Assembly: GCA_050287085.1 (NCBI GenBank)
Contig: JBNKBE010000022.1
Location: 1-58,638, forward strand
Reading direction: 5' to 3'
Length of the DNA stretch: 58,638 nt
Origin: Polyangiaceae bacterium
GTDB lineage: Bacteria; Myxococcota_A; Polyangia; Polyangiales; Polyangiaceae
Below, piece after piece: positions 16,165-20,828 of this stretch (positions within the stretch are counted from its first letter, which is position 1; each line of letters starts with the position of its first letter). The notes under the pieces are model-generated. The model searched no databases. It was given only the letters and a program-made list of their open reading frames with translations, and was not told where the DNA came from. A program made the translations under genes and the position numbers.

Positions 16165-18015
16165 TCAGGGCGCGCAGTCGAGCCGGGCTCCAGCCCAAAC
16201 GGCATGATCCAGGGCTGTCGTGTTTCCCCCTATCCCGACGAATAGCCGCAGCTCCGTCTTATCTCGTAAATCGACGTCGACGGTTTGCGCAGGACTCATT
16301 CCAGTCACGACGCCACTTTCGAACAGTAGTTCACCGTCAGCCCAAACCTCGAACTGTACGGAGCCTTCGGTCGCTTGATCGTCGTCGATGCCAATGTCGG
16401 CCGTGAAGCGAGAACAGGCCCGCCCCAGGCGATAACGTATCAGGGACGGCCCGTGCACCCCCAGGCCCTTCTCGTAGGTCGTATCGCGCAAACGAATCTC
16501 TGCGCCGTCGAGCGGCTCGTCCTCGCCGTTAGTGCTGTCGATCTCGACCGGACCAAAGCCGTTCGTCACGTACGTCCAAGGTAGGTTGCTCAGGTACACC
16601 TGCCCGCGAGGAAGCGCCGGCTCGGTACCGACCACCTTGAGGGCCAGCGCATCGTGGGGAGGAACGGTCACTGTCAAATGGTCGGACTGTGACGCAAGCG
16701 TTTGCCCTTGCCATAGATCGTGAACGGCAGGCTCGTCCCCCTCAACCAACCAGATATCCTTCCAGGATAGCGAGATCTCAGCGGCAGCATCGCCACGATT
16801 CCACATTACAACGGCGCGCGCCCCACACTCCGCCAGAGGCTTGGCCAGCACGTCAACACTCCCCTCGCTCATGACCAGCGCCGCCTGAAGACCCAGTGGG
16901 TCCTGGTTGAGCGCAATGACGTCGGTGTTGGTCAGAATCGATCGCGTCTCCTCGCTCATGGTGATGAGATCGTTGCCCGCAATAAGGGGCGCCGAAAGAA
17001 TGGACCACACCGAGAATTGAACGCGCTTCTCCCCCGCTGTGAAGTCCGCGTTGCCAATCTCCAACATATCGGGGTCGTTGAACGCCCCGGGACGCGCATA
17101 GGCTGCCAGCGGCACGGCGGCATCGATCGACTTCACCACAGCGTCCCACGTGGGCTCGGCGTCCCATACCCGCCACAGCTGAACAAGGTTGTGCATCCAC
17201 TCTTGGAAGCCGCCAGTTGCCAGGCTGACCACTACGTCTCGACCGCTGGCCTTCAACGCGTCGACCAAGTCTTCGATCGCCCCTTGTGAAAACCGATTCG
17301 CTGAGCACCGAACATACTTGAGGTAGTCTACGCCCCAACGCGCGTAGTTCGCCGCGTCTATGGACTCGTAGCCCTCCCCGCCGGGCGACGGCCTGCAATC
17401 CTGGATGTGAGAGTAGAAGCCGAAACGCAGACCGCGATCGTGAATGCGATCCACGAGCGAGGTGATGCTACTTGACAGCCGCTCGGGATCGAAAAGACGC
17501 ACGCCTTCCGCGTCGCGCCCGATCTGCCAACAGTCATCCAGGTTAACGTAGCTATATCCCGCACTCTGCATCCCACTGGCTATCAACGCGTCGACGGTCG
17601 CCATCAACTTGGCCTCGTCGAGCTCAGCGCGACACCGAAACGCATTATAGCCATTCCAGCCCATGGGCGGTCGGGCGGCGATCAGCCCCTGGGGAATCGC
17701 CGGGCTGCAGTCCTCAGGGAAGCCCGGCTCCGGTGGCTTGGTTCCCGCTTCGACCGGCTCCGGCCCAGCTTCCCGGGGCGGGGGCACCGCCATTCCCCCG
17801 TCCACGACTTTCGGAGTGCTGGCATCTCGACTCCCGGGCGTGGGCTCGGCACCGGCACCGGCACCGGCCTCGGCACCGGCGCCCGATGCACTTTCCATTG
17901 GAGGCGCCAGCTCGATGTCTTCGCGCCCGCACCCCACCAGCGAACCCACACCCGCGCCAAGTGCGGTGACCAGCCCCAGGGCTGAGCGGATGGCATGTCT
18001 AGAATAGCTCAACAC
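16165..18015 (-). CDS. GH27 alpha-galactosidase-like lipoprotein with C-terminal NPCBM; catalytic nucleophile substituted
   Basis: PPMGWN, VNLDDCW, FNDPDMLEIG, APLIAGND, IALNQDPLG; NPCBM YEKGLGVH..FTADIGIDD..DHAVWAGARL; YLKYV instead of YLKYD; start uncertain (GTG 18015). Confidence 0.88.
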   Translation of the reverse strand: MLSYSRHAIRSALGLVTALGAGVGSLVGCGREDIELAPPMESASGAGAEAGAGAGAEPTPGSRDASTPKVVDGGMAVPPPREAGPEPVEAGTKPPEPGFPEDCSPAIPQGLIAARPPMGWNGYNAFRCRAELDEAKLMATVDALIASGMQSAGYSYVNLDDCWQIGRDAEGVRLFDPERLSSSITSLVDRIHDRGLRFGFYSHIQDCRPSPGGEGYESIDAANYARWGVDYLKYVRCSANRFSQGAIEDLVDALKASGRDVVVSLATGGFQEWMHNLVQLWRVWDAEPTWDAVVKSIDAAVPLAAYARPGAFNDPDMLEIGNADFTAGEKRVQFSVWSILSAPLIAGNDLITMSEETRSILTNTDVIALNQDPLGLQAALVMSEGSVDVLAKPLAECGARAVVMWNRGDAAAEISLSWKDIWLVEGDEPAVHDLWQGQTLASQSDHLTVTVPPHDALALKVVGTEPALPRGQVYLSNLPWTYVTNGFGPVEIDSTNGEDEPLDGAEIRLRDTTYEKGLGVHGPSLIRYRLGRACSRFTADIGIDDDQATEGSVQFEVWADGELLFESGVVTGMSPAQTVDVDLRDKTELRLFVGIGGNTTALDHAVWAGARLDCAP

Positions 18016-18979
18016 CGAGATAGCCCGTAATGTTCGCGGTGATGGGACCTGGCGACAGGACCGGCATACCGTCAATTAGATAGCGCCGATACGTCGGATA
18101 GTAGTCGGCATCCAGCGCAACGCCGAGGTACAGCCGATCTCGGAGCCGAGCATTGGCGGAGGTCTCGAAGCCCACCGAACCATTGATTCGATCCACCGTG
18201 GATCGCAGCGAGCTTGCTTCAAACTCCCCGTGCAGACGGGCCCAATGAGCCTCTCCTCGCAGCCCCACAACCGCAAAGAACGCAGGGGCATCGAGCACCC
18301 GATAACGCACGGCAGCTCCCAGAACCGCTTCGGTATAGCGGCCAGCGTACCCGGTGCGCTCCACCCGAAACCCAGGTCCGGTGGAGACGTCCAAGCGAAG
18401 TCCGAGACCGGGTGCAGACGACAACCACAACACCGACGCAAGCTCGATGGACAACTCTGATCGACGCTCGCCAGTCCAATGGCCACCGCCACCGATCTCC
18501 AACGCCAAGCTCCGCCGCTCCTGCTGCGGGCTTGTAATGCTCCCATATCGCTCTCGGTCTGGAGATAGTGCGCTCGACCGCAATACGGTCTTCACGCTCA
18601 GGGCGACGGCTGCGGCGCTGGCTCCCGAGAAGGGCGGCGACTCCGTCAGCGGCCGAGTAGTGAGGGCTTCGGCGCCGGCGTCGAAGACCCATAGCAGCGA
18701 ATCGTCTCCCAGCGCGGTCACCCAAACCAAAGCCTCGACGTGGAGTCGGCGCGACAGCTCGGCCGCCGCCTGAACCACGTTTTGAGACGCTGCAGCGGGC
18801 CCCGCGGCCGCGCTGCGTGTTGTTTGAATACCCCACGGTGATAGGGCCAGCGAAACCGCCCGATAGAGCTCAGGGTCCGGCTGCAGCACGGCTACGCGAC
18901 GCGGCGAGGCCCCCGCTGCGCCAACGACGCAGAACAAGACGCCAACAACGGCGAGCGCGGCGATACTCCTCCTGGGCAT
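17999..18979 (-). CDS. Putative outer-membrane protein (N-terminal domain plus beta-barrel) of the ECF cassette
   Basis: Signal peptide MPRRSIAALAVVGVLFCVVGAAGA; amphipathic strands in the C-terminal half; ends YLGVELF. Confidence 0.65.
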   Translation of the reverse strand: MPRRSIAALAVVGVLFCVVGAAGASPRRVAVLQPDPELYRAVSLALSPWGIQTTRSAAAGPAAASQNVVQAAAELSRRLHVEALVWVTALGDDSLLWVFDAGAEALTTRPLTESPPFSGASAAAVALSVKTVLRSSALSPDRERYGSITSPQQERRSLALEIGGGGHWTGERRSELSIELASVLWLSSAPGLGLRLDVSTGPGFRVERTGYAGRYTEAVLGAAVRYRVLDAPAFFAVVGLRGEAHWARLHGEFEASSLRSTVDRINGSVGFETSANARLRDRLYLGVALDADYYPTYRRYLIDGMPVLSPGPITANITGYLGVELF

Positions 18980-18990
18980 CCACCCCAAGA

Positions 18991-20199
18991 CTACCTGAGT
19001 CTTCGCAATACCGCCCGTGCGTCCGCAGCGTTGCTGCCCTGAGGAAACCGCTGCAGATATCTTTCCAACAGTCGTCGAGCCAAGGTCGCATTTCCGCGGG
19101 ATGCCTCCAGGCGCCCTCGAGCGTAGAGCGCATTCTGCGCCCAAGAGTCCGACCCCGCCTCAAGCTTGCCGTAGAGACGCGAAGCTTGCCCAGGATCACT
19201 TCGTTCCAGCGAGGTGGCCCGCTCGAACAAGGTCTGCGATGAAATCGCCGGCTCACGCACCCGGACAGCCTCTCCGGCCCGCTCACGGGCGTGCGCAACT
19301 GGACTTGGCTCGGTCGTCTGCTCAGCGGCCGAGCGCTTCGCCCTACGCGGCGGTACGCTGCGGGCACGCGCCGCCCCCAACCCCTCAGAAGCTTGCCCCT
19401 TTGCTGGAGCCTGTGGCGCTTCGTCGGACTCACCGCGCGCGTCCGTCCCGGCAGCGGCGCTCTTGGACGCGCTCCCTTCACCATCAGCTGTGCGCATCCC
19501 TCCGACGACGGCTCCGGACGCCGACGATGGGGTGGACGGGCTTTCCGTTGTTGTGCCGTCCTTCGCTACCGCCTCCCCGGAGCCAGCCTTGGGGGCGTCC
19601 GTTGCGCCTTCGGTGTTGTCTCTTGGCACCCATACTTCGCCGGCCGCAACACGAGACGAGTGCCCCCCCGAGCTAACCTCGACAACCCCCTCGTACACTT
19701 GCACCCGAGCGCCATCGCCCACCCTCGACACATCGAATCGCGTACCCACGACCCGCACCCGCTCGCTACCCGCTTGTACGATCAGCGGTGCCCCACGAGG
19801 TCGAGGAGCAACGCTACAGGTTATGGTTCCTCGGTCGAGAACAATGAGCATACCCTGCGGGGTTTCTGCGCCAACCACCACCGCAGACTCGGGCCCAACG
19901 TCCACGGTCACCCCGGGTAGCGCCAAGTGTGACGCGCTGACCCCCGTGATGATGTGGGAAGGCTGATCGAGCGCCGCCTGCTCCGGTACCAGCTGACGGT
20001 TAAGGGCAAACGCCAACACAACGCAGGCGGCCACTGCCACAGCCGCAAACCACGGCCGCCACGACACCGCTTTGGAGCGAGCGGGGCCGCGGTAGGGGGG
20101 TGCCGCCTCCAGGGCTAGCCGCGCAAAAGTTGCACGCTCGATGCGCGCCCAGCGTTGCTCGCTCAAAGGCTCGACGTCTACGGGCAGCGGCCGTCTCAT
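18991..20199 (-). CDS. FecR-domain anti-sigma factor with C-terminal TPR-like helices
   Basis: Single TM WFAAVAVAACVVLAFAL; FecR motif VRVVGTRFDV..VQVYEGVVEV; C-terminal ALYARGRL..LERYLQRFPQG; coupled to the sigma gene by ATGA overlap. Confidence 0.88.
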   Translation of the reverse strand: MRRPLPVDVEPLSEQRWARIERATFARLALEAAPPYRGPARSKAVSWRPWFAAVAVAACVVLAFALNRQLVPEQAALDQPSHIITGVSASHLALPGVTVDVGPESAVVVGAETPQGMLIVLDRGTITCSVAPRPRGAPLIVQAGSERVRVVGTRFDVSRVGDGARVQVYEGVVEVSSGGHSSRVAAGEVWVPRDNTEGATDAPKAGSGEAVAKDGTTTESPSTPSSASGAVVGGMRTADGEGSASKSAAAGTDARGESDEAPQAPAKGQASEGLGAARARSVPPRRAKRSAAEQTTEPSPVAHARERAGEAVRVREPAISSQTLFERATSLERSDPGQASRLYGKLEAGSDSWAQNALYARGRLEASRGNATLARRLLERYLQRFPQGSNAADARAVLRRLR

Positions 20200-20828
20200 C
20201 TCGGGGCCTCCTCGGAAGCTTGCTCAGACCCCATCAAGAACTCCGACAGCAGCGGATCCCGCTGGGCCCGTTCTTCCAATGCTCGACGCGCCCGCCAGGT
20301 CCTGATCTTAGCCATTCCGAGGGTCGAGTCCATGATCTCAGCGACTTCCCGAAGGCTACGTCCCTCCAGGGCGAATAGGGTAAAAGCCATACGTTGGCGG
20401 GGCTCCAATCGCTCCAATTCAAGATAGAGCCTGCGGACAGCCTCCCGACTTCTGGCGTGTTCTTCGGGGCTCGGAGCCTCGGACGCCGCGTCCTGCACGG
20501 GTTCCAGGCTCGGAAGCTTGGTCTTGCGCCGAAAGTGGGCGTAGGCGACGCGCACGGCGCAGCGGTGGATCCAGGTGCGGAGCGACGACTCGGCGCGGAA
20601 GCTCGGAAGGGAGCGAAATACCTCGAGAAAGGTGTCCTGCAGCAGGTCGTCCATGTGCGCATTGGAACCGATGAGACGAAAGAGAAGACGATGGACATGC
20701 ACACGCTCACGCTCAAAAATCTGGCGCTGAGCTCCCGGATCCCCGGATTTGCATCGCTCGACCAGAATAGCCTCGTCGGGCTGCACGAGTGAGATACGGG
20801 CACTCGATGGAACCCGCGGATTGACCAT
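20196..20828 (-). CDS. ECF-type sigma-70 factor (start probably ATG 20828, downstream of the promoter motif; ORF extends to 20858)
   Basis: DDLLQDTFLEVFRSLPSFRAESSLRTWIHR; region 4 LEGRSLREVAEIM..KIRTWRARRAL. Confidence 0.92.
   Translation of the reverse strand: MVNPRVPSSARISLVQPDEAILVERCKSGDPGAQRQIFERERVHVHRLLFRLIGSNAHMDDLLQDTFLEVFRSLPSFRAESSLRTWIHRCAVRVAYAHFRRKTKLPSLEPVQDAASEAPSPEEHARSREAVRRLYLELERLEPRQRMAFTLFALEGRSLREVAEIMDSTLGMAKIRTWRARRALEERAQRDPLLSEFLMGSEQASEEAPR

Follow-up and report, generated by a model that had tools for sequence, protein, structure and literature searches.

A stretch of 58,638 nucleotides from a Polyangiaceae bacterium (assembly GCA_050287085.1, contig JBNKBE010000022.1), here called the window, carries on its minus strand a unit of four coupled open reading frames that encode, in this order, an extracytoplasmic function (ECF) sigma factor, an anti-sigma factor akin to FecR that ends in helices resembling tetratricopeptide repeats (TPR), a predicted outer-membrane barrel, and a lipoprotein with a glycoside hydrolase family 27 (GH27) domain and an NPCBM domain. 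The GH27 domain lacks the catalytic nucleophile. We propose, with about an even chance of being right, that the four gene products form a single switch spanning the cell envelope, in which the nucleophile-free lipoprotein serves as the glycan sensor. Sugar binding, the contacts between the proteins and independence from TonB are what we infer in this proposal.

Loss of the nucleophile in a clade of GH27 proteins

The lipoprotein (616 residues, 18015-16165, minus strand) consists of a lipobox cysteine, Cys29, a short tag, a flexible linker, the GH27 TIM barrel, a Melibiase_C domain and an NPCBM/CBM51 domain. Matches to Melibiase_2 and Melibiase_C (PF16499, E 3e-46; PF17801, E 9e-15) place it in the GH27 sequence family, and its model superimposes on rice alpha-galactosidase (1uas) with a target-normalised TM score of 0.91 and an rmsd of 1.7 over 359 columns. 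It is the sole GH27 match in the 6.2-Mb genome, and its named relatives come mainly from metagenome-assembled genomes of Polyangiaceae or Myxococcales. Active GH27 enzymes carry an Asp nucleophile in the motif YxKxD. Here the motif reads YLKYV, and Val235 (GTT, 17313-17311, minus strand) occupies in the alignment the place of the YLKYD Asp of rice (1uas) and tobacco (6f4c) alpha-galactosidase. The initial annotation of the window had pointed out this codon and the motifs LDDCW, YLKYV and NDPDML, all of which are present in this copy, and had called for an alignment of homologues to see whether the loss recurs.

The loss recurs in 118 of the 119 best homologues, which were taken from 4168 at E <= 0.001 and share 49-67% identity; the residues at the nucleophile column are Val (95), Ala (10), Thr (7), Arg (4), Ser (1), Asn (1) and Asp (1). 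A tree was calculated from 243 full-length catalytic domains, comprising the best homologues, 150 listed cluster representatives and the loci retrieved. All 142 acid-free sequences fall within one clade of 143 (support 0.982), which contains 121 sequences distinct at 90% identity, and outside the clade Asp or Glu is kept in 100 of 100 sequences. The only clade member with Asp (P0120) is deeply nested and is devoid of the remaining pocket acids. Of 22 loci, 21 encode Val at the nucleophile position, with the codons GTT, GTC or GTG. In ten chosen pairs dN/dS ranges from 0.04 to 0.22 in the TIM domain and from 0.07 to 0.50 in NPCBM. Judged from these comparisons, the pseudo-GH27 clade is under purifying selection and the loss of the nucleophile is real, clade-wide and old. 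The nucleophile appears to have been lost before other pocket positions, because basal members without it (P0245, P0117, P0119, P0122) keep Trp16 and both Asp residues of LDDCW. Three GH27 proteins outside the clade (P0381, P0350, P0389) have Glu in place of Asp at the nucleophile (YVKYE, YVKFE).

The other pocket positions have fared unevenly; Trp16, Cys162 and Trp164 are numbered here as in the rice enzyme. At the acid/base site WRxxxD, Asp285 is present in this copy, with one residue deleted before it, and further changes are Trp16 to Tyr, Cys162 to Ala and Trp164 to Gly. D160, K233, R282, D316, two pocket cysteines and an aromatic residue at Trp16 are kept in 118-119 of the 119 best homologues. 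The acid/base Asp is kept in 57 of them and Trp164 in one; the outgroup Trp164 column was misaligned and left out of the comparison. The second Asp of LDDCW is found in 25, and 15 residue types occur at this position. The earlier statement that the protein keeps the sugar-binding LDDCW therefore holds for this copy and is weakened by the variation in the clade.

The NPCBM/CBM51 domain (16602-16180, minus strand; PF08305, E 4.8e-46) presents a more uniform picture. In the alignment with the CBM51 structures 2vmg and 2vmh, one of which was solved with methyl-galactose, its TNGFG, GVH (in GLGVH) and LDH correspond to STGYG, GTH and SDH. The aromatic residue, His, Asp and His that presumably bind the sugar are kept in 114, 109, 115 and 116, respectively, of the 119 best homologues. 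As far as sequences can tell, the ancestral GH27 sugar pocket is half eroded across the clade and the NPCBM sugar site is retained, which makes NPCBM an equally good candidate for the sugar binder. A galactoside or arabinopyranoside, the ligand named in the initial annotation, is possible; its binding in the old pocket is uncertain because the second LDDCW Asp and the acid/base Asp vary, and the evidence does not single out this pocket.

Conservation of the gene unit and the N-terminal tag

The sigma gene (20828-20196) and the anti-sigma gene (20199-18991) share an ATGA overlap, 11 nt separate the latter from the barrel gene (18979-17999), and the barrel and GH27 genes overlap by 17 nt. Together with the conserved order described below, these junctions bear out the tight coupling of the four genes noted earlier. 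Among ten genome loci with a pseudo-GH27 gene, nine have the barrel gene directly upstream; seven contain all four genes, two end at a contig edge after the barrel, and in one (L005) a FecR gene directly precedes GH27. In 201 genomes of the family, a barrel match occurs in 31, and the eight with pseudo-GH27 are the same eight that have the top barrel scores. No barrel or FecR match lies within 1.5 kb of 22 other GH27 loci, in 19 of which the nucleophile can be read as Asp. A tree of the barrels (101 tips) places every one of the 31 that are paired with GH27 in one clade of 36 (support 1.0). Some loci are duplicates and the related genomes are not independent of each other. With this proviso, the comparisons indicate that the order sigma / FecR-TPR / barrel / pseudo-GH27 is conserved in Polyangiaceae and that barrel and pseudo-enzyme descend together.

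The predicted lipidated Cys opens the tag CGREDIEL (17931-17908, minus strand), which is kept in homologues and is shared with unrelated Cys-rich lipoproteins encoded behind related barrels. Pseudo-GH27 follows the barrel in 17 of 80 metagenome barrel loci. Behind other barrels lie Cys-rich repeats of knottin-like type, or proteins rich in Cys and Asp, that start with similar tags (CGRYDVEL, CGPEDIEL, CGEDVDF); these cargoes were read by eye and automatic labels missed several of them, hence only GH27 cargoes were counted. A DNA pattern for C-[GS]-R-E-D-[IV]-E-L gave nine matches in the 201 genomes and one in the reversed control. One match, in genome G081, was a chance frame and was excluded. 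The eight genuine tags reside on four pseudo-GH27 proteins and four Cys-rich lipoproteins; six are encoded directly behind a barrel, one lies at a contig edge and one in the genome with a split cassette described below. None of the eight lies in the 170 of the 201 genomes that have no barrel match. Since the tag is missing from barrel-free genomes and occurs on unrelated cargoes, it tracks the barrel and not the enzyme fold, and its recurrence on Cys-rich cargoes suggests that the sensor slot is swappable. We propose that CGREDIEL is a strand that docks to the barrel.

Tagged lipoproteins with tandem knottin-like Cys repeats were seen behind sister barrels in L054, L063, L067, L070, L071, L085, L098, L116, L162, L170, L179 and L181. 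Pfam matches of sister cargoes to conotoxins and knottins were read as matches of cysteine spacing and not as toxins. The genome of the window contains other sets of sigma, anti-sigma and exported barrel-like genes (C1:421505, C1:174851, C23:55636, C18:77869, C8:128106, C33:44474). Recognised by eye, these sets give no match to the profile of this barrel, and some have lipoproteins behind them whose N-terminal tags differ.

The barrel protein and the anti-sigma factor

Gene 3 encodes a protein of 326 residues for which searches of Pfam and NCBIfam gave no match. At E <= 0.001 there are 154 homologues; the closest Atlas clusters consist of unnamed Myxococcota proteins. An AlphaFold2 model (pLDDT 91) displays a signal peptide, an alpha/beta domain (residues ~26-144), a barrel of eight antiparallel strands (residues ~154-326) and a C-terminal Phe, a residue found in 73 of 120 barrel homologues. 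The barrel resembles OprF (4rlc; Z 17.7, rmsd 1.6, 133 residues aligned), NspA (Z 17.6) and OmpW (Z 17.1), and the N-terminal domain resembles that of TolB (7mx5; Z 8.7, rmsd 3.1, 102 residues aligned). Model and structure matches thus agree with the earlier assignment of an outer-membrane barrel, and the protein is predicted to combine a TolB-N-like domain with an OmpA/OprF/NspA-like barrel. R264, Y293, R299 and Y300 of the barrel are kept in 97-98% of the homologues and are read from the model as lying on the outer face; the N-terminal domain keeps R109, K130 and R134. Either surface could accept an acidic strand.

The sigma factor (210 residues) matches Pfam Sigma70_r2 and r4_2 and scores above the cut-off of TIGR02937. 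The adjoining anti-sigma factor has a short cytoplasmic N-terminus, one transmembrane helix (residues 49-67), a FecR domain (residues 95-174), a low-complexity linker and C-terminal TPR-like helices. The transmembrane helix and the Gly-Thr motif VVGTRF were found in nine of nine copies. Its earlier designation as a FecR-TPR protein stands for the FecR part (PF04773, E 2.5e-9). The TPR matches (E 0.004-0.006) fall below the Pfam cut-off, and the C-terminus aligns as a helical repeat. The score of 19.8 bits is far under the FecR equivalog cut-off of 385 bits, no STN-type or FecR_C domain was found with Pfam, and comparison of the sequence with solved structures gave no useful match.

The putative promoter and its candidate target genes

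A putative ECF promoter, GTAAC-N18-CACTA (20867-20840, minus strand), precedes the sigma gene by 11 nt, and a second copy (16120-16093, minus strand) lies 8 nt before the next gene downstream of the cassette, which encodes a DUF1592/1588/1587/1595/1585 lipoprotein (16084-14174, minus strand). The motif recurs ahead of the sigma start, at a distance of 7-10 nt, in L002, L004, L006, L008-L010, L042, L059-L062, L066 and L078. Across 212 kb from 26 cassette loci, G[TA]AAC-N18-CACTA gave 29 matches, and all other spacers from 12 to 24 together gave one. Genome-wide counts did not exceed the controls, so that only copies anchored by their position were counted. From this placement we infer autoregulation of the sigma gene.

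The DUF1592 lipoprotein and the DUF1552 (HXXSHH) protein encoded behind it (14177-12708, minus strand) are putative targets. Support that depends less on the loci from which the motif was drawn comes from the DUF1592 genes: the genome contains 27 DUF1592 matches, among which only the cassette-adjacent one has the promoter. It also contains over 20 DUF1552 matches. Orthologues of the DUF1592 protein, 57-70% identical, adjoin the cassette in relatives, and DUF1552 orthologues, 74-82% identical, are present in L002-L004, L006 and L007. The third exact copy of the promoter in the genome (C15:112544) precedes the gene of a 535-residue lipoprotein (C15:112582-114189; L119:4583-6190) with two copies of an uncharacterised Cys-containing domain and no match in Pfam, NCBIfam, PDB or Atlas. 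Its homologues (55-80% identical) have the same promoter in four other genomes, and in two of these the contig is not the one that carries the cassette. This lipoprotein is a putative regulon member.

Several further observations concern the promoter and the neighbourhood. A weaker version, GTAAC-N18-CACTG (24495-24468, minus strand; score 13.8 as compared with 20-31 for the training sites), lies 10 nt before a run of three genes (24457-20950, minus strand) for MbnP-like, MbnH-like di-haem peroxidase and PNGase-F C-terminal-like proteins; this run is situated just upstream of the sigma gene and is possibly a further target. The promoter of the cassette also stands before another ECF sigma gene, distinct from the first, that adjoins the cassette (L008:7142, L009:8967; also L208), which suggests a sigma cascade. 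Genes of glycan enzymes are frequent nearby, GH3, GH31 and GH12 in the window and GH9, GH54 and esterases in relatives. Between the GH3 and GH31 genes an exported protein of 532 residues (9596-7998, minus strand) is encoded that is porin-like by sequence, ends with Phe and has no Pfam or NCBIfam match; it is a possible sugar porin. A DUF1592 protein bearing CBM2 is included in a table on a lignocellulose community (PMC6004670), and some PSCyt/PSD genes carry carbohydrate-binding modules (PMC5615132).

A model of signal transfer and its alternatives

In the model that we propose, the lipoprotein would be located at the outer membrane, where its acidic tag would pair with the barrel. The ligand, a galactose- or arabinose-containing glycan, would be held by the NPCBM site, by the half of the GH27 pocket that is left, or by both. 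In the periplasm, the TolB-N-like domain of the barrel would hold the TPR end of the anti-sigma factor and so replace the STN-STN contact of classical systems. Binding of the ligand would free the TPR end, and the anti-sigma factor, self-cleaved at Gly-Thr as in FoxR and FecR, would be degraded. The freed sigma factor would read GTAAC-N18-CACTA and switch on the operon that encodes it together with a few exported proteins. A wider version of this model is offered more tentatively. It envisages a TonB-free platform in Polyangiaceae in which the barrel grips the FecR-TPR protein inside and, by the eight-residue tag, a plug-in lipoprotein outside. One lineage would have exchanged a knottin-repeat cartridge for an alpha-galactosidase whose nucleophile was switched off first and whose pocket has since been retuned between species, giving rise to a family of lectins that descend from an enzyme and report different glycans of plants or microbes.

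A number of observations weigh against the sensor proposal. Release of a classical FecR protein requires the TonB motor to pull the anti-sigma factor apart (PMC12036975), and genes for a TonB receptor, ExbB and TonB lie just upstream in one of the ten loci (L006). The second Asp of LDDCW, the acid/base Asp and Trp164 are poorly kept, as described above, and the four retained polar residues of the pocket may be structural. The putative targets, that is, the DUF1592 and DUF1552 proteins and the C15 lipoprotein, have no known carbohydrate role, and the GH3, GH31 and GH12 genes of the window are not among the motif matches. The promoter motif itself was derived from these same cassette loci and is not enriched genome-wide, with 23 matches versus 59 for the reversed control in five genomes. 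The Cys-rich cargoes of sister barrels are without any sugar-binding domain. Finally, one genome (L005/L120) splits barrel and pseudo-GH27 onto different contigs, each behind its own FecR gene; one contig carries FecR and pseudo-GH27, the other sigma, FecR, barrel, promoter and a second sigma gene without a lipoprotein. This arrangement looks like a duplication followed by reciprocal loss.

The main rival, which we regard as somewhat unlikely, makes the lipoprotein an output of the system. It would be a non-catalytic surface lectin or adhesin that is anchored or exported by the barrel, and the anti-sigma factor would monitor something else, for example whether the barrel has assembled, whether the tag occupies it, or envelope stress. 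Such a role agrees with the position of the lipoprotein gene at the end of the sigma factor's own operon, with the exchange of cargoes among unrelated domains and the several barrel loci that have no tagged lipoprotein behind the barrel, and with targets that are exported proteins of no assigned function and not the nearby hydrolases. It accounts less well for the single lipoprotein per cassette, which is translationally coupled to the barrel and descends with it, whereas the other targets have promoter copies of their own. That catalytic residues in particular were lost agrees with a receptor role, yet is compatible with an adhesin.

Another explanation retains the lipoprotein as sensor and denies sugar binding to GH27, which would be a rigid spacer or a protein-binding surface; a glycan would be bound by NPCBM alone, or the ligand would not be a glycan. 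The clade has lost seven positions whose conservation in active GH27s is 90% or more; six of them are 190, 201, 213, 235, 285 and 312, of which 201, 235 and 285 line the pocket. The residues that are invariant specifically in the clade are mainly outside the catalytic motifs, and the 15 residue types at the second LDDCW position point in the same direction. We consider this explanation distinctly improbable in view of the near-complete retention of D160, K233, R282, D316, both pocket cysteines and the aromatic residue at Trp16, and of the basal members that have no nucleophile and retain Trp16 and both LDDCW Asp. Moreover, galactosidases have Asp at the second LDDCW position, and Ile or Glu there marks arabinopyranosidases (PMC4598101).

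A TonB-dependent transducer encoded elsewhere, with barrel and lipoprotein as accessories, has still less in its favour. The earlier observation that the cassette has no TonB-dependent receptor proved right, and no such barrel (PF00593) is encoded on this contig; nine are encoded elsewhere in the genome. These nine, the receptor, ExbB and TonB genes adjacent in L006, and the TonB dependence that is normal for FecR-type release (PMC12036975) speak for a transducer. Against it stands the TPR-like end of the anti-sigma factor without an STN or FecR_C match, since in FoxR the STN-like subdomain is the part that binds the receptor (PMC11637429). A second receptor-adjacent case was not seen in the other nine genome loci, in which only some of the open reading frames were scanned. 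That the lipoprotein is still an enzyme with a different or borrowed nucleophile is hardly credible, for although the fold is intact and the acid/base Asp is present in this copy, any Asp or Glu within one residue of the site occurs in just 11 of the 119 best homologues and the acid/base Asp is missing in 62. A sequencing error or decaying gene, suggested by GTT being one base away from GAT, is ruled out by the homologues, with their clade-wide loss, GTG codons two changes from Asp and dN/dS far below 1; the read check at 17312 advised earlier adds one Logan contig (depth 16) without a difference, which comes from the single data set found to contain the sequence and may be the source of the window DNA; no RNA data set containing it was listed.

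If the sensor proposal is correct, a surface signal crosses both membranes without a TonB-dependent transporter, and the receptor slot is filled by different domains. It would also provide a clade-wide pseudo-enzyme in GH27, a family reported to conserve both of its catalytic Asp strongly (PMC12137362). The promoter motif offers a ready reporter and links one long-unexplained DUF1592-DUF1552 pair with a particular sigma factor. An exchangeable sensor that docks by a tag could serve in the construction of biosensors.

Comparison with known systems

In the literature searched, mostly non-subscription, no published description of the cassette or of an inactive bacterial GH27 was found; the group descriptions that supplement the ECF classification may include this sigma group. 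Passages of the re-classification of ECF sigma factors name an anti-sigma factor of FecR type with TPRs for ECF267 and OprF for ECF102, and not the present unit (PMC7826278). In Pseudomonas SigX-CfrX-CmpX-OprF (ECF102), an ECF sigma factor is likewise proposed to be controlled with an eight-stranded OprF-type barrel of its own operon. That system differs in its soluble anti-sigma factor and mechanosensitive channel and has neither a FecR domain nor a lipoprotein sensor (PMC7826278, PMC8999054). The lipoprotein has its fold, its order of domains and roughly half of its -1 pocket in common with GH27 alpha-galactosidases and beta-L-arabinopyranosidases (rice 1uas, SaArap27A 3a21, GsAbp 4nx0), whereas the nucleophile is missing in 142 of the 143 clade members and the acid/base and specificity positions vary freely.

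Two further parallels are cell-surface signalling of the Fec and Fox type and the polysaccharide sensors of Clostridium thermocellum. As in FecI-FecR-FecA and FoxI-FoxR-FoxA, the ECF sigma gene adjoins that of a single-pass FecR-domain anti-sigma factor with Gly-Thr, an outer-membrane partner is co-encoded, and autoregulation is presumed (PMC11637429, PMC12036975). FoxR cleaves itself at the Gly-Thr site, and its STN-like C-terminal subdomain binds the receptor (PMC11637429). In contrast, no cognate TonB-dependent transducer with STN stands beside the sigma/FecR pair in the cassette, where the adjoining outer-membrane gene encodes the eight-stranded barrel with its TolB-N-like domain. No STN-type domain was detected on either partner, the anti-sigma factor has a TPR-like end, and the proposed receptor is a separate lipoprotein. 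In C. thermocellum SigI6-RsgI6(GH10) and sigma24C-Rsi24C(GH5), a glycoside hydrolase fold of low or no activity is likewise proposed to sense polysaccharides for an alternative sigma factor, and sensor modules are exchangeable among paralogues; there, the hydrolase domain is fused to the anti-sigma factor of a single-membrane cell (PMC4711584, PMC6852018, PMC3990059). RsgI6-GH10 has very low activity and has kept binding (PMC4711584). Here, GH27 is encoded by a gene of its own and is a lipoprotein beyond a second membrane, paired with a FecR-type and not an RsgI anti-sigma factor. The cassette departs from each of the two systems in one defining feature, the TonB-dependent transducer of the one and the fused sensor of the other; in the proposed reading it would resemble FecA-FecR-FecI in its layout and RsgI6-GH10 in employing a nearly inactive hydrolase as sensor.

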